From: Balanoglossus misakiensis
Taxonomy: Eukaryota; Animalia; Hemichordata
Direction of reading: 5' to 3'
DNA: 64,000 nt
Assembly (NCBI GenBank): GCA_040954595.2
Contig: CM082583.2
Span: 3,915,060-3,979,059, forward strand
Numbering within the stretch: position 1 is the first letter of the stretch; each line of letters opens with the position of its first letter. The notes under the pieces are model-generated. The model saw only the letters and a program-made list of their open reading frames with translations, was not told the DNA's origin and ran no database searches. The position numbers and the translations under genes are program-made. This document shows positions 1-29,285 of this stretch, in pieces.

Positions 1-2410
1 GAGACATTTTAAGAAACACCGTTTTATTGTATTAAATGGCGTAACAATCAGGCCAGTCATGCAAACTATTTAGTTTATTGACAATTCAGCTTTATTACCA
101 GGCAAACGTATCGATTATTCGATGCAGTGGAAATCGTGGCATTTCACACTGTCATTGTAATTATAGACGCGGTTAAATGGTTTTTGTCTCTTCTTTTATT
201 TGAACATCCACATAAAATAGTGCGACGTACTTTTTGACTCAGTTCCCGCGTTGACAAATTTGATTTACAGGTTTTTAAAACATGGCGGCGAATTCGCAGG
301 TCCCTCTACATAATGCAGACTGACCACATGTTGGCGATATGAACAGAATTTAATTTTTGTCAGAGGAATCCGATGACTTCAAGGCCATTAAGGCCTCCAG
401 AGTTATCCATCTAATCCATTCTTCTTTACCATATTCACACAAATCTTATTATAGACAATGTCCCTACAACTTCATTCAGGACCAACCATGCCAGAGAAAA
501 ACATCATCACTCTTTTCTTTGGAGTCTAACGTGAGTTCTAACATGCCATAAGTAATGTCTTAAAGATAACTTGAATTCTTTGTTCACATAACATGTAAAT
601 CTTTATGATGCAAGTGAACTTATACAAAAAAAACTGTAGTTATTAAAAATAAATGAAATATAATCATCATTGTGTGGGTTTCCATGTATCTTGTGATAGT
701 TAATGTTAGATGTCGATGTCAAATTAAATCAATGTATTTACATATTTACACATTTAACTCAATTATACTTTTAGTAATCTATTATTGTGAATTCTTGTAT
801 TTTTACAGTCACACATTTACAAAAATCTACCCCTTTTGTCGTCTGACGTAATTTTGTTTTGAAATCTTTGTAAGATAAAATATTTGCATGCAATCCTTCT
901 GTCAAAACCAACTTTGTCTGATTAATATGTATCTGAAATGATTTAAGTGGTATTGTATTATCAAACGTAGATATTTGACGACAATTGATAATGAAATTAA
1001 GATAATTATATCTTAAAATACCTATCGGACATTTATTAAATGCTGAATCAAAAGCATGTTTTGTACTGCTCAGATGTAATGAATAAAATACTACAAAAAT
1101 AAATGCGAGTCTTTAATCAATCCTTTTCTACCTTAATTAATCAGTTAAGTTTTTCAATTAATATGAAGTACAACGTGGAAGATCGTGCACGTTCACTCTA
1201 TGTATTGGATGCGATGTCGATGGACATTCTGTATGCTCTGATGTTTATCCTGTTAGGCCTTACCCTCTGGTGTTGCTGACATTAATTATTTAATCGCTAT
1301 CTCTTTCCAAGTCAAAATTTCCTCCGGCTCAGTGTGTCCTTAGAACCTTTAAATATTCCATCGCTCGGGATAAGTGTGCACGTGTCTTTCCTTTTCATCT
1401 TGTAGGCCTATTCCTCAGTTGTATAATAATCATAAACTCCGTGGGGAGTGTGATTCTTTCTTTAGGAGACGCCTTCAGTTCTCTTTGAGTTCTGACAGTT
1501 TGTAAACGCTATTTCAACGCTCCTCACCCTGTCTCTAGAGTTTGAAAAGTTAGTTTGATATTAAGTATTTATAAAAGTTTCCACTTCATGATACGGAGCC
1601 AAATAATATTATTATTTTATGATTTTTGAGCAATAAAATCGACAACTCATTGTACTAAATCGCATGTTTACTGTACATTCACGACAATTTGGTATTTAAA
1701 GTTGTACGTGTCGTTGTATTTCGAATAACAAAATACTATCACTTTTTTTTTCAATTCAACTTAACAGCTGCAAATTTGCTGTAAGATTTATAAACAGTGA
1801 TCGATTTACCTTCTGAACTTGTTAAACGTGGGGGGGGGGGATTTCATTCCTTTATGCTGTCTTAATACATTATCATTTCTGCATCTCCCCTGCCCTTTTT
1901 TCGTCGTCATTCACATGAGTGCTCTGTTTTGAAAAGTTTTAACAAAACTCAATTCACTAACAAGTTACTCTTTTCGAAACATCTGACGTCACTTCCTCGT
2001 CTTTTTGCCAGAAGTCCGTATACATGTCAGTGTATCTTTCTTTCACGGACTTCTCACGGAGTTTGTTGTGTGTGTTTTGTGAATTGGACTGTGCTGTTTT
2101 GTGACATCTTGTCTTTGCAACTGACATACAATGCAAACACCGTTTATTTGACCTAAATTTAAGCTTAAGAATCTGAATGGGTATGATCTAAATTATTTAT
2201 TACATTATTTCTATACATGTACATGTCTTTCATCAGACATTGGGGAATATTTGGGAATATGTACTTTCATGCATGTCATATTTCAATTCAACTGAAAATC
2301 TGCTATTCACAAGTTTCCTTGTTCTTGTCTCTGTGGCAACACTGGTATCGATAAAAGTGTAAGTTTCTAACTCTCTAGATCACAACGAGACTTGATCGGA
2401 AACATTGAAT

Positions 2411-5400
2411 ATGTATTCCCTGGCAAGTCTCGGCTTTATGTTGCTATATGCTGTTTATATTCCTATGTCGCAACAAGGTAAGTGTAGGGAAGACACAGGG
2501 ACTAGAACCTACCCTTAAACGATGTTTTGTTATTTTACGGTATTTCTGTGGCCTTTATCCTGTGTAATATAGACGTGTGCAGTTTAGGTAGATGTCATAT
2601 GGATTTTCTGTGCTAACATGGGATATTTTTTATATTGAAGCGATAATTTGACATTTTCTTTTTTTGATGATTTTTCATACAACATCTCAAGAAATTGCTC
2701 TTAAATTTATTGTGAATGTATACAGGCATGCATGTCTCTTAAATGCACATTACAATCATTGCACAGTTAACAATATCCGAATATTTTTTGTGGTGTTGAA
2801 ATTAATTTTGAGAATGCACTTATGTGATGGCTTTCATATTGTGTTTACCGGGTCCCACTTATATTCTTGTGACTTGCCAATATTATTGTAACCAACATAC
2901 TGTATACGGGAGCAATATTGCTAAAAATCCCTTGTCTGATTGCTTTGTGATTTGATTTTAGGGTCATCGGATTTCCCTCATTACCTTTTTGCCAAAATTG
3001 TCGTGGAAATATTAATTTTTGTACTTCTTCCTGATTTGTGGTCAAAAACTCAAAATGGCTTGCCGAAATTTTGTTTTAGGGTCCTTGGGTATTCGTACAG
3101 AGAGCAAACAAATCACTTCGTCAATCCCATGACCATAACATAAGCGAAGCAAATATATTTGCCTCAAAACGTTTGTAATAGTCTTCTCTCGGCTGACCTA
3201 AATATATGACCCTAACGATGCGTTAAGAGAGTGTTTCCTAGACTTGTCCATAAACCTCCAAAACATTACAACATTCAACGTCTCTTGAAATAATTGTACT
3301 GCTTACCAGTTGCTTTCCATCCACATTGCAAACTCTCAATATTGTGTTCCAACGTCATAGGTTTGTTTTATTCTATTTCTTTTTGTCAGAATGCGTAGTG
3401 AGACACTTCCTGAGAAATGGTGAGGCGGTTCGACTTAGTCATCCAAACTATACGTATGTTTACTTCTATGTTATGTGTACTTGGATAATGAAGAATGCCG
3501 ATGGTGGAATTATAAAGATCTGCTTCAGGGATTTCGAGTTTGAATCGCAAGGTGACTTCCTTATAGTCGGAGACGGCGATAACACTAAATCCAGTCAGAG
3601 GAACACATATATGTACAATGATAGCATCCCCGGCATCTTTGTATCGTCAGGAAATCAAGCTTGGATAGATTCGTCGTCGAGTCGAAGAAATAATGCACGA
3701 GGATTTCGTGTGACTGTAACTGCATTGGAAAGTGAGTATCAAGCGTTCCATTTCAATTATATCCCAATCCCAGGGGGATCGTGATCTCCCAAACCAAATA
3801 ATGACAGTGATGATGACGATTAGATATTAAAAAGAAAGAAAAATAAAAACATTTCGAACCCTACGTCGAATATTACCACTTCCGATGTTTGCTACATTTT
3901 GTAGGTGTATGTTCGGTGATGAAAACAAACGTTTGTGCATTATGATGCTGCCCCCTTTTAAAAGTAATGTTAAACCTAATTGAATCATTCTCCTCTACCC
4001 TAACCCTATAATCATGAATCGTTCTACCCCCACCCTAACCCTATAATCATGAATCGTTCTACCCCCACCCTAACCCTATAATCATGAATCGTTCTACCCC
4101 CACCCTGACCCTATAATCATGAATCGTTCTACCCCCACCCTGACCACAACCCCACCTGACAACAACATACAACATGGTCAACAACAACAGCGACAAAAAT
4201 CCCTATGTAAATACTACTATTAATTATGCAAATTTCAAATTAAAAATTGTCAATGATCTCCATAATGTTACGTCTACAAAGAAAACCTAAATAGGAGTCT
4301 TTTGATGAAAACAAGTCTCCTAACATATGTACCAAAGGTTTTCCTGGCTATCATTTATCTGAAAATCTGTTCCCGAGGCTTAATATGATACGTGTAGAAG
4401 ATGGTATACAAGCATGAGTGTTACAATAAAGTCACCCAATGATTTTTTGTTTCATATAAATATATGTACAAAGAAACCTACTCAATGTTGGCTTGAAGGT
4501 TACACCTACATTAAAATCTACTGGATTGAATGTCCGAAGATTTTCTGACATAAGCATAATGTCATGCGTAATTTTCTCACTTGTACAATATAAATATTCT
4601 TCATCAGTGACGTGCGTTAAAAGCCCAACATTCAGATATGCCCAGGGCACTATACTCGCTGCTATACTTTTGTACCATCATTTCTGTACATTTCTCCAAA
4701 AAACATTTTTCTACTTTGTCACAGAGATATTAAAGGGACAAGGTCTCTCTCTCACTGCCCTTGTTCCATTAATTATGTTTGATACAAGACACTGTTTATG
4801 TTAATGTACATGTGTGTATGTAGTGAATCAACATTCAACCACATACAACTTCCACCTCCCTTGTATTATATGAGAGTAAAAATATGCCCAAAATGAATAA
4901 ATGGTAGACACTGATTATTCATTTTGGCAAGTTTTTTCATTCTCACGTCTACAAGCGGGATGGTAGCAGTGTGTGATTCACTATATATCTACATGTACAT
5001 TAACATAAGTGGTGTCTTGTATCAAACATAATTAATGGAAAAAGGTCAGCAAGAGAGAGACTTTGTCCCTTTAATGATTATATTTGGTCTTGTTTGCATC
5101 GCATTTATCATGTAGGTGCTGCAATTCCTGTGGACGCATGTCCAACTACATCAGGTGTAAGTATTAAAACCAAACACGTGACAGTTGAAAGGAATTCTAA
5201 TTAAAATTGCAACAAGTGAGCTTTAGAACACGCTCCTCTGACGAGCGAATGCATGGGAGCGTTGTTCAAAGGAATATAGTTATTAACCACAATAAGTTAC
5301 CCTGCAAAGTTGAGATCAAGGCAATACATATTTGTCAATATATATCCGCGCGAAAGACGTGCGCCATGACATGGTCATTCGATGACTTAGACTTGCCCTG

Positions 5401-8400
5401 TCGTCATATATAAGCATACATGTATGTAGATTTCAGGTTAACGTATTTTTAAGGACTCTGGAAGTAAAATAAATTGGAATAAATTAGGAAATATACAGTG
5501 CACTGCAAAGGAGGGATGTTTTTACATCAGCAAAACACACGGGAGATGGTCCAATACACCATTAACAGTCCATATCAAACACACTGCACTGCATTGGTTA
5601 GATTCTGCTTTGCACACAAGGCATCTGCTGTTTAAAGAGAACGTGCATGTCACTGGCAAGAAAATCAAATTTATGTTTTAAACAGTAGGAATCCATACAG
5701 TGTCTGAATTCCCCCAAGTTCCCCCTAAAACCGACTGTGCGCACGCTAGTCTGTAATACCGTTATAAAATGCACATGGCACGGCCTAATATATAAATAAC
5801 AACTTTGAATTGGTGCGTGAGTAACCCGATGTGAAGTAACGGGCCAGCTATCGGTACATTACTGCATGTTTTCATCATTTGAGAATGGCTTGAAATTAAT
5901 GCATGTTAAAATTCACAAACTCGGACAAATATGTGTTGTGTATCTGTTCTAAAGTCAAAATGAACTACCTAATCCTTTATTGCGTCATTTCTTGACTCCG
6001 ATAGGCGCTTGGAAAGTTTAGTCAAGCATCTGACTTGATCGGGCGACTAGAAGATGCAAATCCGCCTTTAAGGGCAACCCAAGCATTGGCTAAAGGCAAG
6101 CGATTACACATTTCCGAGAAATAATAGACGATCCAGTTTGCGATGACCAGCCGTTGGAGACTTTGCAATTAACATATATTTGAACAGCACGTGTTAGTCC
6201 TTGGTCGAAGTGATGCCAGATCAATAATTAATTTATGAATAGCATTAATGTACCGTGTGGTTGTCTACCTCTTTGCTTACAGGCCAGGGAGGAAACGCTT
6301 TTTCAAATATATGCACGATATGGACTATATTTTAGAAAAGAAATTACTACTCATTCTGCTTTTCATGATAAAAGTTCAATTCTAAATCTTACAGAGATCC
6401 TGATACTTCTGGATGAAGGCATCGTGTTAATTCAGTCGCCGGTCAGTAATGAAACAAGAGACGAGTTGACCAAGTTCCTTCTAAACACAACCGATTCCCT
6501 CGCCAAGTCTGTTCTAAGCAAGGTGGAACCCGGCAGCGGGCCAGTTACCATGGATTCAGAATTCTTTCAATTGCATTTGGAAAGCGATTCTGTGGTGCAT
6601 CTTACAAACACCTCAATAATACTCCGAGGCGGTAATGGTGTGAAATTTCCACCGGCAGAGAAGATGTTCTCCAATTTAACTTCTGGAGCAATTGTTAACA
6701 GGATTGTAAGAGTCTTACCCTTGTTGTTCATCATAAATATGTTATTTCTTCCATCTTTGTTAATTACTTAATCACACTTTGTAAACACATGCCAATAAAG
6801 TTTATAATGTGTTATCGCCCATAGGTTAATGTTTTCAACAGAAGTTTGCTTCTTCCAGACTACAATGGAAGGAACACATTTTCAAGAAAATTTGTGTTGA
6901 GCTTGTCGTTCACTGACAGAGAAGGCAGAGAGTTAGAAGGTATTTATATCATCACAACGCGGTCATTTAATTGCCTTGTCTTAAAGAGGAACTTTGACCA
7001 ATTAGTTTTGTGCACGAAAGATTTCGTTTTCTATAATGATTTACATATTTTCTATTGACTCTTCCAGTGAAGGATACAAAAGAAGACATTGAAATCACGT
7101 TTGCAAGTGAAGCCCCAGAGTCAGAAACCGCCTCATTAATCGAAGCTGTGTACATTGAAGCCCGTGACGTCACATATTTTGGATTTAATGTCGAGGTAGG
7201 TGAATGGAATTAAAACTAGTTAAATTATGTGTGATGAGCTATTAATTATGTCTACTTCTTTGTGCTATCGGCGAGCCAATACCAACAGATTATAACAGAG
7301 GAAAGGAAACACGCGGGGAGTGGAGTTAAACACTTGCTCAAATAATTTATGTCCGTGTTCATATTTATCACAAAATTAATATTCATTCTATATTCTATGT
7401 CGCAGATAACATGGTTGTTACATCCAATTATCATTAAGTTTGAAAATTGCGAACCTCTGTACGGAAATACAACAGTGTACGTCTTCAATGAACTTACGGC
7501 TTACTCTGACAAATACGTTGGATACCAGTTCGCTGTTGATATGGAATTTGCAGGAGATTATTCCTCGGTGTTCATTCCAGAAAATTATTTCTTTAGAACT
7601 GGAGAGTATTATTTCACATTTACTGTTCCCCACAGTAAGTGTTCCTGTTTAATATTTACCTTTCACCTCACTTAAGTGTTGTACACACATATCGTTTAAA
7701 GCACATTTAATGCTGTATCGTCATGCATTATTTTGATTTGTTTGCAAGTTCAAACTTAACTAATTATATTGGAACCTATAGTATTATTTGTATCAGAACC
7801 TATTTATTTTAATTCACGTAGTAAGAAAGTCCGAACTTCTAGGCCAAAATGGGTCCACATTCTGGTATTAACAGTCGACGTGACCACCATGTCGAAAAGA
7901 ACACAGCTTCTTTGAGATTCATTAACTTTTTTTGTATTCTTTCGATTTTGTAGAGCAAGATATCCAGTTTGCATTCACTGTCATACTAACTACGTGTTAT
8001 TATCTGAACATCCAGACTGACAGTTGGAAGAGTGGCGGTTGCCAGGTATACACAATGGTTCCTCAAATGATAATTTTGATTTAGCAGAATCAAATTTGTT
8101 GAAACCTTACCCTAGTTTAACCACGGATACTCCAGCATAACCTTGATTTAACGTATCGTCTGGATACGACAAAACTGAAAGAGTATAGCAGGAGAAAATT
8201 GAGAACTTGGTTAATCTTTGTCATATTCGTCGCTCAGATTCAAATGGCAGATGAGGAATGTTCAGTTATGTTCGAATGTATTTGTCTGGAGATTCCTTGA
8301 TAGGCAGGATATGTTGCAATGTCCAAGGGGTTATTATCCCGATATTCTTTATATTTAGATAAACTCTTATCCATTTTACCACCATTGTTTGGTCCAAACC

Positions 8401-8827
8401 CATTGATTTCTATGGTAAAGATTGATGTCTAATATTAAAAAGGGAAATGCGTGCCTTATAGTCTACTGGCTATACCGACATATACTAGAGAGTTTCTGTG
8501 AAATATGCGCCTGTGATCATTTTGATGATAATGAAGTCAAAATGCACAATCCTGAAACACTTGCGAAATGGTTGGTAGCAATGATATCATTGCTCATAAA
8601 TATTTAAATATTTTTGCAACCGTTATCCCAATCAAATCAGTCTGAGCTTTAATTGTTTCTCGCATAGCAGAGTGGAAGTAAAGTTCTGGCTCGGGAGACT
8701 GAACCAATCCGTGCTTCTTTTAAATCTGCAGGTTTCACCATCATCAAACTTCACGTCCACTGTGTGCCTGTGTAACCACCTGACGACATTTGCATCCAGA
8801 AAGGCGACAACAATGATATTACCCTAG
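2411..8827 (+). CDS. Secreted CUB + polycystin-type GAIN/GPS domain protein, copy 1 (10 exons, 503 aa, no TM segment)
   Basis: Hand-spliced exons, all phase-compatible: 2411-2477 (MYSLASLGFMLLYAVYIPMSQQ, signal-peptide-like), 3390-3731 (CUB: C..SHPNY..CTW..I.F.DF..DFL.V.DG..RGFRV), 5116-5156, 6005-6095 (GC donor), 6395-6705, 6825-6939 (VLSLSFTDREGRELE), 7068-7195 (VKDTKEDIEITF), 7406-7634, 7954-8045 (CYYLNIQTDSWKSGGCQ), 8732-8827 (VSPSSNFTSTVCLCNHLTTFASRKATTMILP*). Total 1512 nt with no stop. The C..W...GC / C.CNHLT.FA pattern is the GPS motif of PKD1-like proteins and adhesion GPCRs. Confidence 0.85.
3997..4145. repeat. 35-bp minisatellite (CCCTAACCCTATAATCATGAATCGTTCTACCCCCA), about 4 units, intron 2 of copy 1
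   Basis: Direct tandem repeat read from the sequence; about 1.5 units in copy 2 (~12868-12915). Confidence 0.9.
4734..5070. mobile_element. ~340-bp foldback MITE with TTAA target duplication (Kolobok-like non-autonomous), family A
   Basis: TTAA|AGGGACAA...TTGTCCCT|TTAA with long internal inverted symmetry. Copy 3 has the empty site with a single TTAA (~24765). Confidence 0.85.
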
Positions 8828-10511
8828 AAAACGATTGCCAACATGCTAATCCAGGATGCATTGCGATTTCCAACATGGCGGCGAACCCACAAAGCCCTCT
8901 TCATTGAATGCAGACTGACCATATAAACAGAATTGGATTTTTATCATAGGAAACCGATGGCCAGAGTTAATCAACCATACTCAATTCCTCTTAACTATAT
9001 TCACACAAATCTTATTATAGACAATGTCCCTACAACTTCATTCAGAACCAACCATGCCAGAGAAAAACATCATCCCTCTTTTCTATGGAGTCTAACGTGA
9101 GTTCTAACATGCCATAAGTAATGTCTTAAAGATAACTTGAATTCTTTGTTTACCACAGATGTAAATCTTTATGATGCAAGTAAATGTATACAAAAGAAAA
9201 AATGTAATTACAGTGTAGTTTTTTTTTAAATTTAAATTTAAATACAATAATTATTATGTGGGTTTCCATGTATCTCGTGCTTATGAATGTTAGATGTCGA
9301 TGTCAAATTAAATCATTGTATTTACATATTTACACATTTAACTCAATTATACATTTAGTAATCTATTATTGTGAATTCTTGTATTTTTACAGTCACACAT
9401 TTACAAAAATATACCTCTTTTGTCGTCTGAAGTACTTTCGTTTTGAAATCTTTGTAAGATAAAATATTTGCATGCAATCCTTCTGTCAAAACCAACTTTG
9501 TCTGATTAATATGTGTCTGCAATGATTTAAGTGGTATTGTATTATCAAACGTAGATATTTGATGACAATTGATAACGAAATTCAGATAATTATATCTTAA
9601 AATACCTATATCGGACATTATTAAATGCTCAATCAAAAGCATGTTTTGTACTGCTCAGATGAAATGAATAATAAAAATACTACAGAAATAAATGCGAGTC
9701 TTTAATTGGTCCTTTTCAACCTTAATTAATCAGTGAAGTTTTTTTAAACATGTAGTACAACGTGGTAGATCGTGCACGTTCACTCTATGTATTGGATGCG
9801 ATGTCGATCGACATTCTGTATGCTCTGATGTTTATCCTGTTAGGCCTTACCCTCTGGTGTTGCTGACATTAATTATTTAAGCGCTATCTCTTTCAAAGTC
9901 AAATTTCCCCCGGCTATGTGTGTCGCTCGGTATAAGTGTGTCTTTCTTTTTCATCTTGCAGGCCTATTCCTCAGTTGTATAATAATCATAAACTCCGTGG
10001 GGAGTGTGATTCTTTCTTTAGGAGACGCCTTCAGTTCTCTTTGTGTTCTGACAGTTGGTAAACGCTATTTCAATGCCCCTCACCCTGTCTATAGAGTTTG
10101 AAAAGTTCAGTTTGATATTAAGTATTTATAAAAGTTTCCACTTCATGCTACGGAGCCAAATAATATAATTAGTTTATGATTTTTGAGTAATAAAATCGAC
10201 AGCTCATTGTACTAATTCGCATGTTTACTGTACATTCACGACAGTTTGGTATTTAAATTTAAAGTTGTACGTGTCATTGTATTTCAAATAACAAAATACT
10301 ATCACTTTTTCAAGTTAACTTTATAGCTGCAAATTTGCGGTACGGTATATAAACAGTGATTGATTTACCTTCTGAACTTGTTAAACGTGGGGGGGGGGGG
10401 GGGTTCATTTTTTGCGTGCAACATATGCTGTCTTTATACACTCTCATTTCTGCATCTCCCCTGCATCATTCACATGAATTCTCTGTTTTGAAAAGTTTTA
10501 ACAAAACTTAA

Positions 10512-11015
10512 AGGCACGTAAGCTGTAACTTTTGGGATAATTTTCATAATTTTTGTTTCAAACTGCACTACCATTAGTCTATGCAGATGAAGGCAGTGAA
10601 CTATACACAAGCATTATAAACCCTAAATATGAGTGCATATACAAGTTTTAACCAGATAAATAATAAAGCTTTGCTGCAAGCGATTATGGCCGCCACCGTG
10701 GGAAAATGCAAGAAACAATGAAAATGATGTATTTCAGGTTATGAAACTTCATAAACAAAACATGATCTCATCCACTTGAGCTCATGGAAGTAAATGTACA
10801 CCACTGAGACATCAGATTTTCATTTTTCATTGCAATATTGCTCTTTTTTTAAAATTGCTGGAATTTTCTTTTTTCTTTAATTTTTTGCCATTTTGTCATA
10901 AATAAATGTTGAGCTTGATATATTATCATGAAATATCATTTAATAGACATAATTAAAAGCATATATGAGATTATTTACAACTTTAATTTTTTATCCAGTT
11001 GCAGCTTACGTGCCT
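10512..11015. mobile_element. ~500-bp TTAA-targeted non-autonomous DNA transposon (Kolobok-like), family B
   Basis: TIRs AGGCACGTAAGCTG...CAGCTTACGTGCCT flanked by TTAA. The empty site AAAACTTAATTCAC is present in copy 3 (~21365). Confidence 0.9.
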
Positions 11016-11331
11016 TTAATTCACTTACTAAGGTTACTCTTTTCGAAACGTCTGACATCAACCTACATAATGATGATTGTATTTCATTTATTTTTAATAA
11101 CTACAGTTTTTCTTTTGTATAAATTCACTTTCTATACATGTACATGTCTTTCATCAGACATTGGGGAATAATTGGGAATATGTAGTTTCATGCAGGTCAT
11201 ATTTCAATTCAACTGAAAATCTGCTATTCACAAGTGTCCTTGTTCTTGTCTCTGTGGCAACACTGGTATCGATAAAAGTGTAAGTTTCTAACTCTCCAGA
11301 TCACAACGAGACTTGATAGGAAACGTTGAAT

Positions 11332-14300
11332 ATGTATTCCCTGGCAAGTCTCGGCTTTATGTTGCTATATGCTGTTTATATTGCTATGTCGCAACAAGGT
11401 AAGTGTAGGGAAGACACAGGGACTAAAGCCTACCCTTAAACGATGTTATGTTATTTTACGGAATTTCTGTGGCCTTTATCCTGTGTAATATAGACGTGTG
11501 CAGTTTAGGTAGATGTCATTTAGATTGTCTGTGCTAATATAAGATATTTTTTATATTGTAGCGATAATTTGACATTTTCTTTTTTTGATGATTTTTCATA
11601 CAACATCTCAAGAAATTGCTCTTAAATTTATTGTGAATGTATACAGGCATGCATGTCTCTTAAATGCACATTACAATCATTGCACAGTTAACAATATCCG
11701 AATATTTTTTGTGGTGTTGAAATTAATTTTGAGAATGCACTTATGTGATGGCTTTCATATTGTGTTTACCGGGTCCCACTTATGTTCTTGTGACTTGCCA
11801 ATATTATTGTAACCAACATACTGTATATGTGAGCAATATTGCCAAAAATCCCTTGTCTGATTGCTTTGTGATTTGATTTTAGGGTCATCGGATTTCCTTC
11901 ATTACCATTTGCCAAAATTGTCGTGGAAATATTAATTTTGTACTTGTGGACAATTCTTCCTGATTTGTGGTCAAAAACTCAAAATGGCTTGCCGAAATTT
12001 TGTTTTAGGGTCCTGGGGTATTCGTACAGAGAGCAAACAAATCACTACGTCAATCCCATGACCATAACATAAGCGAAGCAAATATATTTGCCTCAAAACG
12101 TTTGTAATAGTCTTCTCTCGGCTGACCTAAATATAGGACCCTAACGATGCGTTAACATTACAACATTCAACGTCTCTTGAAATAATTGTACTGCTTACCA
12201 GTTGCTTTCCATCCACATTGCAAACTCTCAATATTGTGTTCCAACCTCATACGTCTGTTGTATTATATTTCTTTTTGTCAGAATGCGTAGTGAGACTCTT
12301 CCTGAGAAATGGTGAGGCGGCTCGGCTTAGTCCTCCAAACTTTACGTATGATCACGACTTTTTTGCGTGTACTTGGATTATGAAGAATGCCGATGGTGGA
12401 ATTATAAAGATCTGCTTCAATGATTTCGAGTTTGCCTCGCAAGATGACTTCCTTATAGTCGGAGACGGCGAAAAAACTAAATCCAGTCAGGTGAACACAT
12501 ATTTGTACAATGATAGCATCCCGGGCATCTTTGTATCGTCAGGAAGACAAGCTTGTATACGTTCGCCGCCGATTCGAAGAAATAAGGCACGAGGATTTCG
12601 TGTGACTGCAACTGCATTGGAAAGTGAGTATAAAGGGTTCCATTTCAATTATATCCCAATCCCAGGGGGATCGTGATCTCCCAAACCACATAATGACAGT
12701 GATGATGACGATTAGATATTAAAAAGAAAGAAAAATAAAAACATTTTGAACTCCACGCCGAATATTACCACGTCTGATGTATGTTCAGTGATGAAAACAA
12801 ACGTTTGTTCATTATGATGCTTCTCCCCTTAAATAGTAATGTTAAACCTAATTGAATCATTCTCCTCTACCCTAACCCTATAATCATGAATCGTTCTACC
12901 CCCACCCTAACCACAACCCCACCTGGCAACAACATACAACATGGTCAACAACAACAGCCACAAAAATCCCTCTGTAAATACTACTATTAATTATGCAAAT
13001 TTCAAATTAAAAATTGCCAATGATCTCCCTAATGTTACGACTACAAAGAAAACCTAAATAGGTGTCTTTTAATGAAAACAAGTCTCCTAACATATGTACC
13101 AAAGGTTTTCCTGGCTATCATTTATCTGAAAATATGTTCCCGAAGCTTAATATGATACGTGTAGAGGGTGGTATACAATGGTAATTGCAAACACACATGC
13201 TTGCGTGAGTGTTATAATAAAGTCACCCAATTACTGTTTTTAGGTCCCATTGGTATGTACCATGGGACCTTATGGGATCGGTTGCGTCTGTATGTATGTA
13301 TGGATGGATGTATGAATGGATGTATGTCTGTATGTACGTCCACATCAAAAACTTGAAAACCGCTGCGCGTATGACCTCGATATTTGGTGTGTAGATGAAG
13401 GCAGGGCTGTAGATGGGAGTTTGTTCAAATGAAGTTGTCATTGCCAAAAATATGCAAATTAGCTGGGAAAATGTGAAATTGGTCAAAACTCAAAAACTCA
13501 ACAACAACTGGTCATATTGATTTGAAAATTGGTATGCATGTACCTTATGTCAACCTCATACAGTCCTGTATGTTTTTAGCTAATATTATTGATTTCCTAT
13601 TTTTTATGCATTTTTTTGTATTTTTCCATGTTATTGGTAAAAAGTCTTCATTACTAATTCATTCCTGAAAGTGATGGGATTACTTCTTTCAAATTTAGTA
13701 TGAAGCTTCCTAATGGTTGTCTGAGTAACCATAGTTTTGTTCAAATTGTTGCAAAATTCGCATATTTATAATTTTGAGCAATATTTGCCATTTTTGGTCA
13801 AATTTTTTTCTCTTTAAAACCGCATGCCAGATTGCTTTGCAATTTGGTAGGCATGTTCGTAGGGGTAACCTAAGTAATATGTTGTAAAAAATGTGATATT
13901 TTCATAAATGTGTTATCGGGGAAACTTTTGCAATTTTTGTCAAAAATTGTTTTCTCTGAAACCGCTTGTCATATTGCATTGAACTTTGGCAGCATGTTCC
14001 TTGTAGTGATTGAAGTAAGATATTGTACAATTTTGGTGATATTTGCATATTTGTGTTTTTGCCACTTTTGAACAAATATTTTTTGTGAAACTGCTTGTTG
14101 GGTTGCTTTGACATTTGTTTTTTCTCTGATTGCTTTGAAATTTAGGATATAATTTGATAATACATACATGTATATTTGCAACTTTTAATTAATTCTGATA
14201 CCAGAAATATTCAATATTTAGCGAGTTTTTTTGTAAGTTTCTTTGTTTTTGGTTAGCAAATCTTCTCCTAAACCAATTGTCCAGTTTTTAAAGTTACTGT

Positions 14301-17300
14301 TTACAAGGAGTTGTTACCCCCAACTTAGACATGTTTACATAACTTTAATAAGCCAGCTGTTACAGAGACCACGGGCTATTAAATGTTTAATTACCAGTGG
14401 CAGGTCCGTGTGTGTGTGTCTGTCTGTCTGTCTGTTCCAGGGCTGACAGGATGAAGTTGCTTCCTATGTGTTTGTACAGACAATTTTTGGTCAATTTTTT
14501 TTCTAGCACCACTTGTAAGACTGCCATGACACATGACAGTTTATTGGGCATGTTCCTTGTTAATTTGTTTACATTCCATATTTCTGTATCGTAAGATCAT
14601 ATCTGCTTGCAATGTCACCTGTAATTTTTTTCTGGTGTGTCACTGTTTCCGCATAATCCTCAAATGGGACCACAGTGTCCTAGACGCTATTTTTTATATA
14701 AATTTATGTACAAAGAAACCTACTCAACGTTGGCTTGAAGGTTACACCTACATTAAAATCTACTGGATTGAATGGCCGAAGATTTTCTGACATAAGCATA
14801 ATGTCATGCGTACTTTTCTCACTTGTACAATATAAATATTCTTCATCAGTGACGTGCGTTAAAAGCCCAACATTCAGATATGCCCAGGGCACTATACTCG
14901 CTGCTATACTTTTGTACCGTCATTTCTGTACATTTCTACTCAAAACATTTTTCTACTTTGTCACGGAGATATTAAAGGGACAAGGTCTCTCTCTCATTAA
15001 AGGGACAAGGTCTCTCTCTCACTGCCCTTGTTCCATTAATTATGTTTGATACAATGTAGTGAATCAACATTCAACCACATACAACTTCCACCTCCCTTGT
15101 ATTATATGAGAGTAAAAACTTGCCCAAAATGAATAAATGGTCGAGACTGATTATTCATTTTGGCAAGTTTTTTCATTCTCATGTCTACAAGCGGGATGGT
15201 AGCAGTGTGTGGTTCACTATATATCTACATGTACATTAACATAAGTGGTGTCTTGTATCAAACACAATTAATGGAAAAAGGTCAGCAAGAGAGAGACTTT
15301 GTCCCTTTAATGATTATATTTGGTCTTGTTTGCATCGTATTTATCATGTAGGTGCTGCAATTCCTGTGGACGCATGTCCAACTACATCAGGTGTAAGTAT
15401 TAAAACCAAACACGTGACAGTTGAAAGGAATTCTAATCAAAATTGCAACAAGTGAGCTTTAGAACACGCTCCTCTGACGAGCGAATGCATGGGAGCGTGG
15501 TTCAAAGGAATATAGTTATTAACCACAATAAGTTACCCTACAAAGTTGAGATCAAGGCAATACATATTTGTCAATATATATCCGCGCGAAAGACGTGCGC
15601 CATGACATGGTCATTCGATGACTTAGACTTGCCCTGTCGTCATATATAAGCATATATGTAGATTTCAGGTTAACGTATTTTAAGGACTCTGGAAGTAAAA
15701 CAAAATTGGAATAAATTAGGAAATATACAGTGCACTGCAAGGGAGGGATTTTTTTACATCAGCAAAACACACGGGATATGGTCCAATACACCATCAACAG
15801 TCCATATCAAACACACTGCACTGCATTGGTTAGATTCTGCTTTGCACACAAGGCAACTGCTGTTTAAAGAGAACGTGCATGTCACTGGCAAGAAAATCAA
15901 ATTTATGTTTTAAACAGTAGGAATCCATACAGTGTCTGAATTCCCCCAAGTTCCCCCTAAAACCGGCTGTGCGCACGCTAGTCTGTAATACCGTTATAAA
16001 ATGCACATGGCACGGCCTAATATATAAATAACAACTTTGAATTGGTGCGTGAGTAACCCGATGTGAAGAAACGGGCCAGCTATCGGTACATTACTGCATG
16101 TTTTCATCATTTGAGAATGGCTTGAAATTAATGCATGTAAAAATTCACAAACTCTGAAAAATATGTGTTGTGTATCTGTTCTAAAGTCAAAATGAACTAC
16201 TTAATCCTTTATTGCGTTATTTCTGGACTCCGATAGGCGCTTGGAAAGTTTAGTCAAGCATCTGACTTGACCGGGCGACTAGAAGATGCAAATCCGCCTT
16301 TAAGGGCAACCCAAGCATTGGCTGAAGGCAAGTGATTACACATTTCTGAGAAAAAGTATAGACGTTCTAGTTTGCGATGACCAGCCGTTGGAGACTTTGC
16401 AATTAACATATATTTGAGCACCACGTGTTAGTCCTTGGTCGAAGTGATGCCAGATCAATAATTAATTTATGAATAGTATTAATGTACCGTGTGGTTGTCT
16501 ACCTCTTTCCTTACAAGCCACGGGAGGAAACGCTTTTTCAAATATATGGACTATATTTTAGAAGGGAAATTGTATACTACTCATTCTGCTTTTCATGATA
16601 AAGGTTCAATTTCAAATCTTACAGAGATCCTGACACTTCTGGATGAAGGCATCGTGTTAATTCAGTCGCCGGTCAGTAATGAAACAAGAGACGAGTTGAC
16701 CAAGTTCCTTCTAAACACAACCGATTCCCTCGCGAAGTCTGTTCTACGCGGGATGAAACCCGGCAGAGGGCAAGCTACCATTGATTCAGAATTCTTTCAA
16801 TTGCATTTGGAAAGCGATTCTGTGGTGCATCTTACAAACACCTCAATAATACTCCGAGGCGGTAATGGTGTGAAATTTCCACCGGCAGAGAAGATGTTCT
16901 CTAATTTAACCTCTGGAGCAATTGTTAACAGGATTGTAAGAGTCTTACCCTTGTTGTTCATTATTTTATTTCTTCCATTTTTTCTACTTATAATCAGACT
17001 TTGTAAACACATGCCAATGAAGTTTATAATATATTATCGCCCATAGGTTAGTGTTTTTAACAGAAGTTTGCTTCTTCAAGACGACAATGGAAGGAACACA
17101 TTTTCAAGAAAATTTGTGCTGAGCTTGTCATTCACTGACAGAGAAGGCAGAGAGTTAGAAGGTATTTATATCATCACTGTAATATATTTTAATCATTTAT
17201 ATCGAAATGAGGCCGGAATTGTAGCAATAGGCTGTTTGTTGTTACCAAATATTAAATGCTTGTCATAGAAAACAATGTTCATCCAAATACCCGATCCAAC

Positions 17301-19220
17301 ACAACGCGGTCATTTAATTGCCTTGTCATAAAGAGGAGCTTCCACCAATCAGTTTTGTGCACGAACGATTTCGTTTTCTATATGATTAACATCTGCATAA
17401 ACGTTATTTTCTATTCACTCATCCAGTGAAGGATACAAAAGAAGACATTGAAATCACGTTTGCAACTGAAGCCCCCGATTCAGAAACCGCCTCATTAATC
17501 GAAGCTGTGTACATTGAAGCCCGTGACGTCACATATTTTGGATTTAATGTCGAGGTAGGTGAATGGAATTAAAACTAGTTAAATCAAGTGTGATGAGCTA
17601 TTAATTATGTATACTGCTTTGTGCTATCGGCGAGCCAATACCAACAGATTATAACAGAGGAAAGGAAACACGCGGGGAGTGGAGTTAAACACTTGCTCAA
17701 ATAATTTATTTCCGTGTTCATATTTATCACAAAATTAATGTTCATTCTATATTCTATGTCGCAGATAACATGGTTGTTCCATCCAATTATCATTAAGTTT
17801 GAAAATTGCGAACCTCTGTACGGAAATACAACAGTGTACGTCTTCAATGAACTTACGGCTTACTCTGACAAATACGTTGGATACCAGTTCACTGTTGATA
17901 TGGAATTTGCAGGAGATTATTCCTCAGTGTTCATTCCAGAAAATTATTTCTTTAGAACTGGAGAGTATTATTTCACATTTACTTTTCCCCACAGTAAGTG
18001 TTCCTGTTTAATATTTACCTTACACCTCACTTAAGTGTTGTACACACACGTCGTTTAAAGCACATTTAATGCTGTATCGTCATGCATTATTTTGATTTGT
18101 TTGCAAGTTCAAACTTAACTAATTATATTGGAACCTATAGTATTATTTGTATCAGAACCTATTTATTTTAACTCACGTAGTAAGAAAGTCCGAACTTCTA
18201 GGCCAAAATGGGTCCACATTCTGGTATTAACAGTCGACGTGACCACCATGTCGAAAAGAACACATCTTCTTTGAGATTCATTAACTTTTTTGCATTCTTT
18301 CGATTTTGTAGAGCAAGATATCCAGTTTACATTCACTGTCATACTAACTACGTGTTATTATCTGAATATCCAGACTGACAGTTGGAAGAGTGACGGTTGC
18401 CAGGTATACACAATGGTTCCTCAAAAGATAATTTTGATTTAGCAGAATCAAATTTGTTGAAACGTAACCCTAGTTTAACCACGGATACTCCAGCATAACC
18501 TTGATTTAATGTATCGTCTGGATACGACAAAACTGAAAGAGTATAGCAGGAGAAAATTGAGAACTTGGTTAATCTTTGTCGTACTCGTCGCTCAGATTCA
18601 AATGGCAGATGAGGAATGTTCAGTTTATGTTCGAATGTATTTGTCTGGAGATTCATTGATAGGCAGGATATGTTGCAATGTCCAAGGGGTTATTATCCCG
18701 ATATTCTTTATATTTAGAAAAAACTCTTATCCCTTTCACCACCATGGTTTGGTCCAAACCCATTGATTTCTATGGTAAAGATTGATGTCTAATATTAAAA
18801 AGGGAAATGCGTGCCTTATAGTCTACTGGCTAGAAGAGCAATATAATACCGACATATACTAGAAAGTTTCTGTGAAATAGGCGCCTGTGATCATTTTGAT
18901 GATAATGAAGTCAAAATGCACAATACTGAAACACTTGCGAAATGGTTGGTAGGTAATTAAATTAGCTTTTTCCAATGATATCATTGCTCATAAATATTTA
19001 AATATTTTTGCAACAGTTTCCCATTCAAATCAGTCTGAGCTTTAATTGTTTCTCGCATAGCAGAGTGGAAGTAAAGTTCTGGCTCGGGAGACTGAACCAA
19101 TCCGTGCTTCTTTTAAATCTGCAGGTTTCACCATCATCAAACTTCACGTCCACTGTGTGCCTGTGTAACCACTTGACGACATTTGCATCCAGAAAGGCGA
19201 CAACAATGATATTACCCTAG
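11332..19220 (+). CDS. Secreted CUB + GAIN/GPS protein, copy 2 (10 exons, 503 aa)
   Basis: Exons 11332-11398, 12282-12623, 15352-15392, 16237-16327, 16625-16935, 17047-17161, 17427-17554, 17765-17993, 18312-18403, 19125-19220. Exon lengths are identical to copy 1, splice sites are intact, the frame is open and it ends CNHLTTFASRKATTMILP*. Confidence 0.85.
13238..14690 (+). mobile_element. ~1.45-kb Helentron/HINE (DINE-1-like) non-autonomous element, copy 2 only
   Basis: Absent from copies 1 and 3. It has a 5' stem-loop GGTCCCAT..ATGGGACC followed by a (TATG/GATG) microsatellite, a 3' subterminal ATGGGACC plus a small hairpin AGTGTC-TAGACGCT, and is inserted in a T-run with no clear TSD. The class assignment rests on architecture only. 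Confidence 0.65.
14976..15306. mobile_element. Family A MITE in copy 2, with tandem duplication of the left terminus
   Basis: Same site as the element at 4734. TTAAAGGGACAAGGTCTCTCTCTCA occurs twice in tandem (14972-15021). Confidence 0.85.
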
Positions 19221-20806
19221 AAAACGATTGCCAACATGCTAATCCAGGATGCACTGCGATTTCCAACATGGCGGCGAACCCACAAAGCCCTCTTCATTGA
19301 ATGCAGACTGACCATATAAACAGAATTGCTTTTTTATCATAGGAATCCGATGGATTGGCCATTAATAGGCCTCCAGAGTTAATCAACCATACTCAATTCC
19401 TCTTTACTATATTCACACAAATCTTATTATAGACAATGTCCCTACAACTTCATTCAGAACCAACCATGCCAGAGAAAAACATCATCACTCTTTCTATGGA
19501 GTCTAACGTGAGTTCTAACATGCCATAAGTAATGTCTTAAAGATAACTTGAATTCTTTGTTTACCACAGATGTAAATCTTTATGATGCAAGTAAATGTAT
19601 ACAAAAGAAAAAATGTAATTAGGTTTTTTTTTTAATTTAAATTTAAATACAGAATTATTATGTGGGTTTCCATGTATCTGGTGCTTGTGAATGTTAGATG
19701 TCGATGTCAAATTAAATCAATGTATTTACACATTTAACTCAATTATACTTTTAGTAATCTATTATTGTGAATTCTTGTATTTTAACAGTCACACATTTAG
19801 AAACATCTACCCCTTTTGTTGTTTGACGTAATTTTGTTTTGAAATCTTTGTAAGATATAATATTTGCATGCAATCCTTCTGTCAAAACCAACTTTGTCTG
19901 ATCAATATGTGTCTGAAATGATTTAAGTGGTATTGGATTATCAAACGTAGATATTTGACGACAATTGATAACGAAATTAAGATAATTATATCTTAAAATA
20001 CCCATCGAACATTTATTAAATGCTGAATCAAAAACATGTTTTGTACTGCTCAGATGAAATGAATAAAATACTACAAAAATAAATGCGAGTCTTTAATCAA
20101 TCCTTTTCTACCTTAATTAATCAGTTAAGTTTTTCAATTAATATAAAGTACAACGTGGAAGATCGTGCACGTTCACTCTATGTATTGGATGCGATGTCGA
20201 TGGACATTCTGTATGCTCTGATGTTTATCCTGTTAGGCCTTACCCTCTGGTGTTGCTGACATTAATTATTTAATCGCTATCTCTTTCAAAGTAAAAATGT
20301 CCTCCGGCTCGGTGTGTCCTTAGAACCTTTAAATATTCCATCGCTCGGGATAAGTGTGCACGTGTCTTTCCTTTTCATCTTGTAGGCCTATTCCTCAGTT
20401 GTATAATAATCATAAACTCCGTGGGGAGTGTGATTCTTTCTTAAGGAGACGCCTTCAGTTCTCTTTGTGTTCTGACAGTTTGTAAACGCTATTTCAATGC
20501 CCCTCACCCTGTCTCTAGAGTTTGAAAAGTTCAGTTTGAAATTAAGTATTTATAAAAGTTTCCACTTCATGCTACGGAGCCAAATAATATTAATATTTTA
20601 TGATTTTTGAGCAATAAAATTGACAACTCATTGTATTAAATAGCATGTTTACTGTACATTCACGACAGTTTGGTATTTAAAGTTGTACGTGTCGTTGTAT
20701 TTCGAATAACAAAATATTATCACTTTTTTCAAGTTAACTTTACAGCTGCAAAATTGCGGTACGGTATATAAACAGTGATTGATTTCATACCTTCTGAACT
20801 CGTTAA

Positions 20807-21228
20807 ACCCCGGTGCGGAAAGTACCGGGGTTCGGATTAACGTGTGTTTGTCTTGTTGTTTATTGACTGTGTAATTGAGCTCTTGGACATAGAAAATAAT
20901 TGAACACTTTACACCTCTACGCGATTGACAGCTGTTTGAATGGCGGGGTTGTTGTTTCCCAGGGACGCTTCTGAAAAGCACTGAAACCAGATTTCTGCCA
21001 AAATCATCGTTGTTTCAAAAGCTCGTGTACTTTTTCGTCGATAACTTTATTTTGTGTGTGTTTATAAAGCCAACTACTGTCGTTGTGTGGTGTAATTCTT
21101 TATGCTTGGACCTGTTTGGGCGGATTTTCATAGAGCCAAGATCGTTGGTGTTGTCTATTGTCAGTCAAACGGCATTAAGATTAATTCGCCACTGATTTGG
21201 GGGGGTCTTTTATACCCCGCACCAAGGT
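20807..21228. mobile_element. ~420-bp TTAA-flanked MITE, copy 3 only
   Basis: TTAA|ACCCCGGTGCGG...CCGCACCAAGGT|TTAA. The empty site GTTAAACGTGGGG is at 1821 and 10380. Confidence 0.8.
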
Positions 21229-21797
21229 TTAAACGTGGGGGGGGGGGGATTTCATTTTCTGCGTGCAACTTATCTGCTGTCTTTATATACTCTCATTTCT
21301 GTATCTCCCCTGCCCTTTTTTCGTCGCCATTCACATGAATTCTTTGTTTTGAAAAGTTTTAACAAAACTTAATTCACTTAATAACGAAACGTCTGACATC
21401 ACTTTTCTGGTCTTTTTTTGAAGTCCGTATATACATGTACATTGTATCTTTTTTGTGTGTGTTTTGTGAATTGGCTGTACTGTGCTCTTTTGTAACTGTT
21501 CGTCCTTGCAACTGACAATACAAACACCGTTTATTTGACCTAAACGTAAGCTAAAGAATATGAATGGGTATGATCTAAATTATTTAGTACATTATTTCTA
21601 TACATGTACATGTCTTTCATCAGACATTGGGGAATATTTGGGAATATGTACTTTCATGCATGTCATATTTCAATTCAACTGAACATCTGCTATTCACAAG
21701 TGTCCTTGTTCTTGTCTCTGTGGCAACACTGGTATCGATAAAAGTGTAAGTTTCTAACTCTCTAGATCACAACGAGACTTGATCGGAAACATTGAAT

Positions 21798-24700
21798 ATG
21801 TATTCCCTGGCAAGTCTCGGCTTTATGTTGATATATGCTGTTTATATTGCTATGTCGCAACAAGGTAAGTGTAGAGATGACACAGGGACTAAAGTCTACC
21901 CTCAACGATGTTATTTGTGGTGTTAAAATTAATTTGAGAATGTACTTATGTGATGGCTTTCATATTGTGTTTACCGGGTCCCAGTTATGTTCTTGTGACT
22001 TGCTAATATTATTGTAACCAACTTACTGTATATGGGAGCAATATTGCGCAAACATTTCCAGAAATCCCTTGTCTGATTGCATTGTGATTTGATTTTAGGG
22101 TCATCGGATATCCTTCATTACCATTTGCCAAAATAGTCGTGGAAATATTAATTTTGTACTTGCGGCCAATTCTTCCTGATTTGTGGTCAAAACTCGAAAT
22201 GGCTTGCCGAAATTTTGTTTAAGGTCCTGGCGTATTGCACTGTTTACCAGTTGCTTTCCATTTACATTGCAAACTCTCAAAATTGTGTTCCAACCTCAAA
22301 ATTCTGTTGTATTATATTTATTTTGTCAGAATGCGAAAAAAGACACTCCCTGAGAAATGGTGAGGCAGTTCGACTTAGTCCTCCAAACTACCCGTATGAT
22401 TACGACAACAATCTTGAGTGTACTTGGATCATGAACAACACCGATGGCGGAATTATAAAGATCTGCTTCAGGGATTTCGACTTGGCCTCGCAAGATGACT
22501 TCATTACAGTCGGAGGCGGCGAAAAAACAAGTCCCAGTCAAGTAAAAACATATTTGTACGATGATAGTATCCCCGGCATCTATATATCGTCAAGAAATCA
22601 AGCTTGGATATACTTGTCGACAAGTCGAAATACTGCACGAGGATTTCGTGTGACTGCAACTGCATTGCAAAGTGAGTACCAAATTTTCCATTTCAATTAT
22701 CTCCCAATCCCAGAGGGATCTCGATCTCCCAACCAAAATAACAACAGGATTATGATGACGATTAGATATTACAAAGAAAGAAAAATAAAAACATTTCGAA
22801 CCCTACTTCCGATGTTTGCTACATTTTGTAGGTGTATGTTCGGTGATGAAAAAAAAAGTTTGTTCATTATGATGCGTCGCCCCTTTAATAGTAATGTTAA
22901 ACCTAATTGAATCATTCTCCCCTACCCTAACCCTATAATCATGAATCGTTCTACCCCCACCCTAACCCTATAATCATGAATCGTTTTACCCCACCCTAAC
23001 CCTATAATCATGAATCGTTCTACCCCCACCCTAACCCTATAATCATCAATCGTTCTACCCCCACCCTAACCCTATAATCATGAATCGTTCTACCCCACCC
23101 TAACCCTATAATCATGAATCGTTCTACCCCCACCCTGACCACAACCCCACCTGAGAACAACATACAACATGGTCAACAACAACAGCCACAAAAATCCCTA
23201 TGTAAATACTATGACAGCACTTCATGACCTCTGCGCGCGATCTGTGCAATATGGATGTTATTTTCATGAGTGATAAGGTGTATTGTTCCGAGTATACGGA
23301 TCGCGCGCAGAGGACATGAAGTTCTGTTATTATTGCATATGTTTCCCTAGATTTGACGAAAATCAAAGTTTCGATCGTGGCGTATTGATTTTCACTACAG
23401 TGATGCGCCAAAGGCTTTGCAACCCAGAGAAGGCCGCTCATTGGCCAAAATGAAGCAACCTTTGTTATGCAAAGAAGGGTCATGTGGGGTCATTCCATCA
23501 GTGGGTTACCTGAGGTCGTGAGATCGCAGCGATACATTTTGAAACACTGGCGATAGCGAGAGATTTTCGTAATTTTCGAGGTTCCAAAACACACTGACAA
23601 CTAAATGTTCTGTTATTCTGACGATAGGTGGAAAGGATAAGAAAACAACGTGCCAGAATGTTGAAAAATCCGCATGTTTCGGCGATCATGTTGGCTCATT
23701 TCATCAGTGGTTTAGCTCAGGTCGCAAGATAGCATCGGCAATATTTGAGAAACTGGCGATAGCGAGGGATTTTCCGAGGTTCCCAAACATACTGCCAATG
23801 AATGTTTTGTTATTCTGACAAAATTTGGGAAGGATAAGACAATGACGTCTCCGAATGTTGAAAATTCCCCACGTTTCGGCGATCATACTCCAGCTCTGCC
23901 GACGGCGTTCAATGTTTACAAACAAAACGTAGTTCGGCTTGTTTTTACTCATTTGCATATGGGTTGTGAAAAATACCACTTTGTCACGCGCACAACTAAA
24001 ACAACATTCGACATTTTTGCGACTGAAATAAAACTTTTGTTATATCCTCCGGAGGTTTATATGAACTCCAAGTGATTGTGTAACAGAACGAGGGTTAAAC
24101 TTTGACAGATATACGATCGATTGAAGGGGAAATGGGGGATCTTATTCTTCTGGATGCTAATTTGCATATCAGCTTGCAAAAAAAAAAAAAACAGTATTAT
24201 TATTGCACGGGCAGCTTGGAATACTGTAGTACATATGCAATACTACTATTAATTATGCAAATTTCAAATTAAAAATTGTCAATGATCTCCATAATGTCAC
24301 GTCTACAAAGACAACCTAAATAGGTGTATTTTGATGAAAACAAGTCTCCTCACATATGTAGCAAATGTTTTCCTGGCTATCATTTATCTGTTCCCGAGGC
24401 TTAATATGATACGTGTAGAGGGTGGTATACAAGGGTAATTGCAAACATACATGCTTGCATGAGTGTTATAATAAAGTCACCCAATGATTGTTTGTTTTTT
24501 ATAAATATATGTACAAAAAACTACTCAACGTTGGCATGAATGTTAACTCTACTGGATTGAATGACCAAAGATTTTCTGACATACATGTAAGTGTACGTTT
24601 GCGTACTTTTCTCACTTGTACAATATAAATATTCTTCATCAGTGACGTGCGTTAAAAGCCCAACATTCAGATATGCCCAGGGCACTATACTCGCTGCTAT

Positions 24701-27700: not shown

Positions 27701-28011
27701 TCAAAATGCACAATACTGAAACACTTGCGAAATGCTTGGTAGCTAATTAAATTAGCTTATTCCAATGATATCGTTGCTCATAAATATTTAAATATTTTTG
27801 CAACAGTTTCCCATTCAAATCAGTCTGAGCTTTAATTGTTTCTCGCATAGCAGAGTGGAAGTAAAAGTTCTGGCTTGGGAGACTGAACCAATCCGTGCTT
27901 CTTTATAATCTGCAGGTTTCACCATCATCAAACTTCACCTCCACTGTGTGCCTGTGTAACCACCTGACGGCATTTGCATCCAGAAAGGCGACAACAATGA
28001 TATTACCCTAG
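21798..28011 (+). CDS. Secreted CUB + GAIN/GPS protein, copy 3 (10 exons, 503 aa)
   Basis: Exons 21798-21864, 22330-22671, 24811-24851, 25370-25460, 25759-26069, 26180-26294, 26423-26550, 26757-26985, 27301-27392, 27916-28011. This copy has the most canonical CUB motif (LSPPNYPYDYDNNLECTW) and ends CNHLTAFASRKATTMILP*. Confidence 0.85.
22925..23140. repeat. Same 35-bp minisatellite, about 6 units, intron 2 of copy 3
   Basis: Direct tandem repeat; unit number differs among paralogues. Confidence 0.9.
23212..24240. mobile_element. ~1.03-kb non-autonomous insertion with a large 5' hairpin and an internal ~205-bp duplication, copy 3 only
   Basis: Absent in copies 1 and 2. AATACTA lies on both sides. 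There is a hairpin ACTTCATGACCTCTGCGCGCGATC...GATCGCGCGCAGAGGACATGAAGT, and an internal TATTGCATATGT pairs with the terminal ACATATGCAATA. Confidence 0.7.
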
Positions 28012-29279: not shown

Positions 29280-29285
29280 AATAAA
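29280..29285 (+). terminator. Putative polyadenylation signal AATAAA of CUB-GAIN copy 3 (homologous sites at 1082, 9670, 20062)
   Basis: AATAAA sits at the same position in all four 3'-UTR-like blocks, and homology of the last block ends about 15 nt downstream of it. Confidence 0.45.

Follow-up and report, generated by a model that had tools for sequence, protein, structure and literature searches.

What does a GAIN domain with an intact autoproteolysis site do in a protein that ends 14 residues after that site? The question is raised by three tandem genes in a 64,000-nucleotide stretch of the genome of the hemichordate Balanoglossus misakiensis (contig CM082583.2, positions 3,915,060 to 3,979,059), hereafter the window. 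The translation of positions 8768-8827 in the first gene reads L-C-N-H-L-T-T-F-A-S-R-K-A-T-T-M-I-L-P-stop, in which the H-L/T cleavage triad (the slash marks the scissile bond) of a GPS motif is followed by a short tail and a TAG codon. The initial annotation had proposed that such a tail is set free as a diffusible agonist, or alternatively that it only completes the last beta-strand of the fold.

The motif itself is confirmed. Translation shows the triad intact in all three copies, and the C-terminal products are those first described: copy 2 (His codon at 19170) has the same motif and tail as copy 1, and copy 3 (His codon at 27961) has Ala at position +2 from the cleavage site. The pattern C.C.H[LI][TS].F occurs three times in the six frames of the window versus none in 200 shuffles, and exon 9 matches the Pfam GPS model with 25.4 bits (cut-off 22.5). 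Among PDB chains, the closest to the GPS sequence is ADGRG6. The two halves of the motif, T-C-Y-Y...W...G-C in exon 8 and C-L-C...H-L/T in exon 9, are separated by a phase-0 intron of 523-721 nt, and the GPS therefore hinges on the splice model. The cysteines and the tryptophan listed in the initial annotation are present in all copies; the spacing that it gave between W and G-C needs correction, being three residues and not two.

Gene models of the three copies were built by hand from genomic DNA alone. All 24 introns are GT-AG, each frame encodes 472 residues with a single terminal stop, and all three copies are free of internal stops, frameshifts and lost splice sites. The predicted layout comprises a likely signal peptide, a CUB domain (encoded by exon 2 in all three copies), a polycystin-type GAIN domain, the H-L/T site, 14 residues and the TAG, with 8-9 N-glycosylation sequons per protein. 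No REJ match was found: ahead of the GAIN domain, the model contains only the CUB domain and a 13-residue linker exon. PKD1L3 likewise has no REJ domain, as described in PMC1934368. Coordinates are given in Table 1.

Table 1. Features of the tandem GAIN genes in the window (all on the plus strand).
Feature	Position	Strand	Basis and details
Tandem array, three units (starts about 279, 8872 and 19265) and partial fourth flank (28056-29298)	279..29298	+	self-BLAST
Nine-exon model of copy 1, encoding 472 aa	2411..8827	+	GT-AG introns, phases chain into one open frame; exons 2411-2477, 3390-3731, 5116-5154, 6395-6705, 6825-6939, 7068-7195, 7406-7634, 7954-8045, 8732-8827
Exon 1, likely signal peptide, copy 1	2411..2477	+	hydropathy: Met and hydrophobic core, KD 2.15 over 11 residues
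Exon 2, CUB domain, copy 1	3390..3731	+	Pfam CUB, E 2.7e-9
Polycystin-type GAIN domain, exons 4-9 up to the cleavage site, copy 1	6395..8782	+	39-52% identity to P. flava relatives; GAIN fold of relative P0033
H-L/T cleavage triad, copy 1	8777..8785	+	read from translation and Pfam GPS; His codon at 8777, Thr(+1) codon at 8783
Post-cleavage tail (14 residues) and TAG, copy 1	8783..8827	+	no GT from His codon to stop; TAG at 8825-8827
Two AATAAA sites, candidate polyadenylation signals	9670..9692	+	matching sites after copies 2 and 3
Nine-exon model of copy 2, encoding 472 aa	11332..19220	+	CUB exon 12282-12623; tail and stop 19176-19220
Nine-exon model of copy 3, encoding 472 aa	21798..28011	+	CUB exon 22330-22671; tail and stop 27967-28011

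At the left edge of the array (256-345), the match to the post-stop flank of the copies begins at 279, and positions 1-278 are unlike exon 9. From an AG acceptor at 270 runs a frame of 23 codons similar to the one that follows the TAG of the copies; it could be the final exon of a different gene or paralogue lying upstream. Directly after the array lies a DEAD/DEAH helicase fragment (29817-30335, Pfam E 6.7e-9), probably a mobile or broken gene. Two tandem genes for collagen and C1q-domain proteins adjoin the array on the minus strand (32388-34025 and 36641-38426). C1q-like proteins are reported to bind BAI3 in mammals (PMC3321182). Further along are an isolated match to the Deltex C-terminal domain (39893-40135, E 8.1e-14) and, on the plus strand, exons of a TTC21-family (IFT139-like) gene (42993-57249). 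A palindromic element of approximately 350 bases is present four times (4716-5075, 14994-15313, 55317-55686 and 57105-57457) and is likely a miniature inverted-repeat transposon.

Relatives were collected with exon 4 as a query against 1.84 billion representative sequences, a search that had no length limit. It gave 27 hits, from which P0023 and P0027 were dropped as repeat-driven; 11 proteins were added from cluster look-ups and two profile searches (profile range 121-2000 residues), and word searches covered proteins of up to 2000 aa. The resulting 36 relatives are 34 RefSeq models of another acorn worm, Ptychodera flava, on 11 contigs, and two unnamed ENA fragments. None is near-identical to the window's proteins. 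With exon 4 alone, a word search at 182-2000 aa found nothing and an Atlas feature search was blank; PDB sequence searches with exon 4 and with profile A1 gave nothing useful. Identity over the GAIN domain is 39-52% for most relatives and about 29% for two. The P. flava models carry automatic names such as 'polycystin-1-like protein 2/3', 'hyalin-like' or 'uncharacterized'. In a tree of the window copies and 18 of the 36 relatives, built with no outgroup, the three copies form one tight branch within the main clade of 19 rows (support 100/99).

The N-terminal domains of these relatives are diverse (HYR, C-type lectin, pentraxin, laminin G, F5/8, SRCR, PAN), with CUB in none of the 36 in the Pfam results seen. 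A membrane helix, defined as a 19-residue window of KD at least 1.8 past residue 40, is likewise present in 0/36. The GPS cysteines are reached by 21 relatives, which end 0-23 residues from the site, and H-[LI]/[TS] is present in 16 of these. Many of the 15 that fall short of the GPS stop at exon junctions predicted in the window, which supports our exon model and also indicates that the annotations are often fragmentary; intron read-through may account for some of the P. flava tails. Two pairs stand apart. P0022 and P0024, the most divergent of the P. flava relatives, stop at the site or before it and have no last strand, which may be real or an annotation error; P0018 and P0028 look full-length and have Tyr-Ala in place of His-Leu, being likely uncleavable. 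The three window copies have the shared GAIN domain, the stop shortly after the GPS and the variable head of this group. The group appears to be an undescribed family of hemichordate PKD1L-type GAIN proteins that is expanded, lacks membrane segments and varies in its heads.

Structure models were made for two relatives, P0033 and P0030. P0033 is 45% identical to the window protein over 336 aa, and its model (pLDDT 90) contains three helices and a beta-sandwich, together with an inserted sandwich and a final strand spanning +2 to +7. In the PDB it matches aGPCR GAIN domains best (Foldseek E 2.9e-6; Z 17.1 to 6v55, with an rmsd of 3.0 over 200 aligned residues). In the Atlas, a PKD1L2 cluster comes first, with a TM score of 0.79 over 323 residues, and aGPCRs score 0.51-0.58. 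PKD1-type GAIN domains are described as carrying an extra beta-sandwich (PMC11697300, section 11), and the P0033 model has one. The same source notes the lack of an experimental structure of a PKD1 GAIN domain, and none was among the matches listed in our PDB fold searches with P0033. Axonemal doublet proteins (PDB 9y6s, 8glv, 9fqr and 8j07) also align along most of the GAIN model, with Z of 9.8-12.2 for three of them. In the P0030 model (pLDDT 78), residues 362-379, which comprise the site and tail, are undocked and below pLDDT 50, so that the last strand is backed by one of the two models.

For the analysis of the tail, close paralogues were collapsed to 14 lineages, window included; these are family members and not proven orthologues. 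Conservation stops at +4. Phe at +3 and Thr/Ser at +1 are present in 14/14 lineages and His at -2 in 13/14; between -8 and +4 the entropy stays at 0-1.5 bits, and between +5 and +11 it reaches 2.2-3.2 bits. The window tail is identical to the other 13 lineages at 36/52 positions from +1 to +4 and at 6/75 beyond, so that, at the level of family lineages, the tail shows the lack of conservation past T-x-F-A that the initial annotation had named, for orthologues, as refuting its proposal. Tail length varies from 4 to 23 residues, and tails of only 4-5 residues exist. The window has S-R-K at +5 to +7, with Arg-Lys where the Stachel has Leu-Met, and the hydrophobic pattern of the tethered-agonist consensus, T-x-F-A-V-L-M (PMC12716839), is absent; two large hydrophobic residues at +6/+7 were found in 1/21 tails. 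Compared with the nine residues of the PC1 stalk in Table 2 of PMC11458180, a reference that is not hemichordate, the window tail is identical at two (three in copy 3). A large hydrophobic residue stands at +12 in 6/6 lineages that reach this position (P0007, P0016, P0019, P0030, P0036 and window copy 1), with a rough p of 0.013 after correction for 10 positions among lineages that are not independent; it could reflect chance or a remnant of the longer polycystin strand. Identity of the tail among the three copies was rejected as evidence of selection and is uninformative, because non-coding sequence past the stop is just as similar between them (0-1 differences between copies in 42 tail bases, 1-3 in the following 100 bases). 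The fallback proposal, that the tail completes the last beta-strand, is supported by the strand at +2 to +7 in the P0033 model and by the end of conservation at +4.

Published work on GAIN domains bears directly on the fate of such a tail. In latrophilin, the strand remains firmly held after cleavage, and without it the GAIN domain is predicted to unfold (PMC3321182). The EMR2 GAIN domain cleaves poorly when it lacks its tether to the ER membrane, and distance from the membrane reduced cleavage in other aGPCRs (PMC12488864). Release of the Stachel from isolated GAIN domains takes about 95-160 pN by AFM (PMC13197933), and PC1 stalk peptides that act in trans were dosed as 2 mM in half the medium, about 1 mM (PMC11458180). 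We therefore favour, with a probability of roughly 0.6, the reading that the window encodes secreted recognition proteins in which the tail completes the fold and the function resides in the head. The tandem genes likely derive from a PKD1L2-type polycystin ectodomain after loss of the membrane part. The CUB-GAIN protein would be secreted, with the GAIN domain as a conserved glycosylated body whose folding would still be checked in the ER, and the tail would likely serve mainly as its last beta-strand. Cleavage would be inefficient and the peptide would stay bound. The variable head, here CUB, would bind extracellular targets, so that the protein would be in effect a genetically encoded version of a shed polycystin N-terminal fragment. 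There is precedent for such a function, as the soluble N-terminal fragment of PC1 is reported to activate PC1/PC2 channels (PMC7728438). Several observations sit less easily with this reading, namely the near-invariance of His(-2) and Thr/Ser(+1), the undocked site and tail of P0030, the hydrophobic residue at +12, and the 15 relatives short of the GPS whose models are often fragmentary. Conservation of His(-2) in 13/14 lineages suggests that cleavage may still matter; the lineage of P0018 and P0028, with Tyr for His, argues that it is not essential. The catalytic His may have been kept as an ER checkpoint, as in EMR2, or may serve a placeholder strand that is exchanged for the stalk of a receptor.

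This last idea can be developed into an alternative in which the tail leaves after cleavage and the empty GAIN groove captures the stalk of the C-terminal fragment of a membrane polycystin or aGPCR. It would account for a conserved triad beside a disposable tail, and P0022 and P0024, which have no strand, as well as the wide variation of the heads, fit with it. Re-association of N- and C-terminal fragments has moreover been reported for latrophilin and EMR2 (PMC6438917). Nevertheless we hold it unlikely: the strand is expected to remain bound after cleavage, with unfolding predicted if it is lost (PMC3321182), the untethered GAIN domain cleaves poorly (PMC12488864), P0018 and P0028 form a full-length lineage with Tyr for His, and the missing strand of P0022 and P0024 may be an annotation error. 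The broader version, in which a polycystin ectodomain freed from its membrane part was expanded in acorn worms into a library of soluble heads, each docking by strand exchange on the stalk of a shared membrane receptor or channel, is similarly doubtful. If the placeholder reading were true, a shared receptor or channel would be served by interchangeable ligand-binding subunits, or the soluble proteins would be decoys that silence or capture stalks.

The array could also consist of decaying partial polycystin duplicates that have no function. It is recent and tandem, the gene is known from DNA alone, and pN/pS over the whole gene is 1.11, 0.81 and 0.52 for the three pairs. Against decay, all three copies have kept their frames and splice sites, the architecture recurs in lineages that are about 50% identical, and the GPS core is nearly invariant; we consider this explanation improbable. 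For the GAIN domain, pN/pS is 0.23 between copies 2 and 3 (p=0.0001) and 0.57 and 0.63, not significant, in the other pairs. The CUB domain is more divergent in all three pairs, with pN of 0.12-0.16 versus 0.02-0.03 for GAIN. Between copies 1 and 2 it differs more than its flanking introns (32/265 versus 16/322, p=0.002), whereas in the pairs with copy 3 it does not (p 0.40 and 1.0); its pN/pS of 2.5 versus synonymous sites is not significant (p 0.13). The case for positive selection on CUB is suggestive at most. Differences between the CUB exons cluster in three short segments, which we take from CUB anatomy to be the ligand-binding loops, and the copy 3 exon has a compensating one-codon insertion and deletion.

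A gene-model artefact would turn the window's proteins into ordinary polycystin-like receptors, with a non-canonical donor leading from the tail to exons for a membrane domain. No GT donor is found between the His codon and the stop in any copy. Two or three GC dinucleotides within the tail leave room for such a donor, but they fit the donor consensus poorly. We scanned the plus-strand frames of at least 45 codons downstream of the three stops (98 of 173 listed, up to 46 kb), a threshold that shorter exons would escape, and found no match to PLAT, 7tm_2 or channel families. The distance from a stop to the first exon of the next copy is only about 2.5 kb, and the next plus-strand matches after the array are the helicase fragment, the Deltex fragment and TTC21B. 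In the window proteins as read from the genome, the maximum KD19 is 1.2-1.4. No membrane helix is present in any of the relatives, those found with no length limit included, and positions +4 to +6 show no shared signature of read-through, such as Val from GTN. Even with hand-built models and P. flava annotations that are often fragmentary, an artefact is therefore, in our judgement, quite unlikely, and the initial claim that no membrane domain is attached is supported, with a TAG 14 residues after the site. Other routes to the membrane were considered and rejected: read-through of the stop gives no membrane helix in the 32 codons past the TAG, and the tail is short and non-hydrophobic for a GPI anchor. 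A 7TM_GPCR_Srv match at 44334-44579 (E 0.0045), below the cut-off and inside TTC21B, was taken as chance.

Finally, the original proposal that CUB binds a target while GAIN frees a diffusible 14-mer activating an aGPCR or polycystin in trans is highly improbable: the triad is indeed intact in the three copies and 16 of the 21 relatives, and PC1 stalk peptides of 7-9 residues activated stalk-less PC1 in cells (PMC11458180), but the tail is unconserved past +4, places Arg-Lys where the Leu of the tethered agonist is described as entering the 7TM pocket (PMC11697300) and large hydrophobic pairs are rare, the bound strand and poor untethered cleavage are published, the known peptides were applied at about 1 mM, and against a barrier of 95-160 pN (PMC13197933) a free peptide would have no anchor to pull on.

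How do the proposed secreted recognition proteins compare with known systems? They would work like a shed ectodomain of a polycystin or an aGPCR, yet they fall outside both families because they have no membrane segments: neither the membrane helix after the GPS, PLAT and channel segments of polycystins nor the 7TM of aGPCRs was found. With PKD1-like polycystins (PKD1L2, PKD1L3, sea-urchin REJ) they share a GAIN domain with an extra sandwich (seen in P0033), the H-L/T GPS and, in the family, lectin-type heads; they differ in lacking a membrane helix, PLAT, a channel part and a REJ match, in ending 14 residues past the site, and in having only three helices in subdomain A of the P0033 model. 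The likeness to aGPCR ectodomains lies in the GAIN fold (6v55) and in the GPS, closest to that of ADGRG6 among PDB chains; unlike them, the window proteins have no 7TM, only about 200/346 residues align, and Arg-Lys replaces the Leu-Met of the Stachel. ADGRG6 (GPR126) carries a CUB domain as well as a GAIN domain. Shed N-terminal fragments (PC1, ADGRE5, ADGRG6) similarly combine a soluble adhesion domain with a GAIN domain acting extracellularly, whereas the acorn-worm soluble form has dedicated genes and supplies the last strand itself. The sea-urchin SpREJ10 is also a PKD1-family protein with no predicted membrane segment, but is described as having a REJ domain and no GPS (PMC1934368), whereas the acorn-worm family keeps GAIN/GPS. 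The P. flava models have the same GAIN domain (39-52% for most), exon junctions and short end, and differ by the absence of CUB in the Pfam results seen.

The accessible literature describes the GPS as always directly preceding a membrane helix (PMC3321182) and restricts GAIN to aGPCRs and polycystins (PMC9672506, PMC11697300). A REJ protein from a coral is given as multi-pass (PMC4890752), and the available text of a hemichordate single-cell study (PMC13554239) contains nothing relevant to membrane-less GAIN proteins. In the mainly open literature covered, we found no description of a membrane-less hemichordate GAIN family, and the supplementary GAIN lists of PMC3321182 and PMC11697300 may hold such entries. 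A family of this kind sets the folding requirements of a GAIN domain apart from those of agonism, since conservation ends at +4 and Leu-Met is lost while the catalytic His is kept. It makes testable why cleavage is kept when there is no tethered agonist, and whether untethered GAIN domains cleave at all, and it offers small soluble polycystin-type GAIN domains for structural work.
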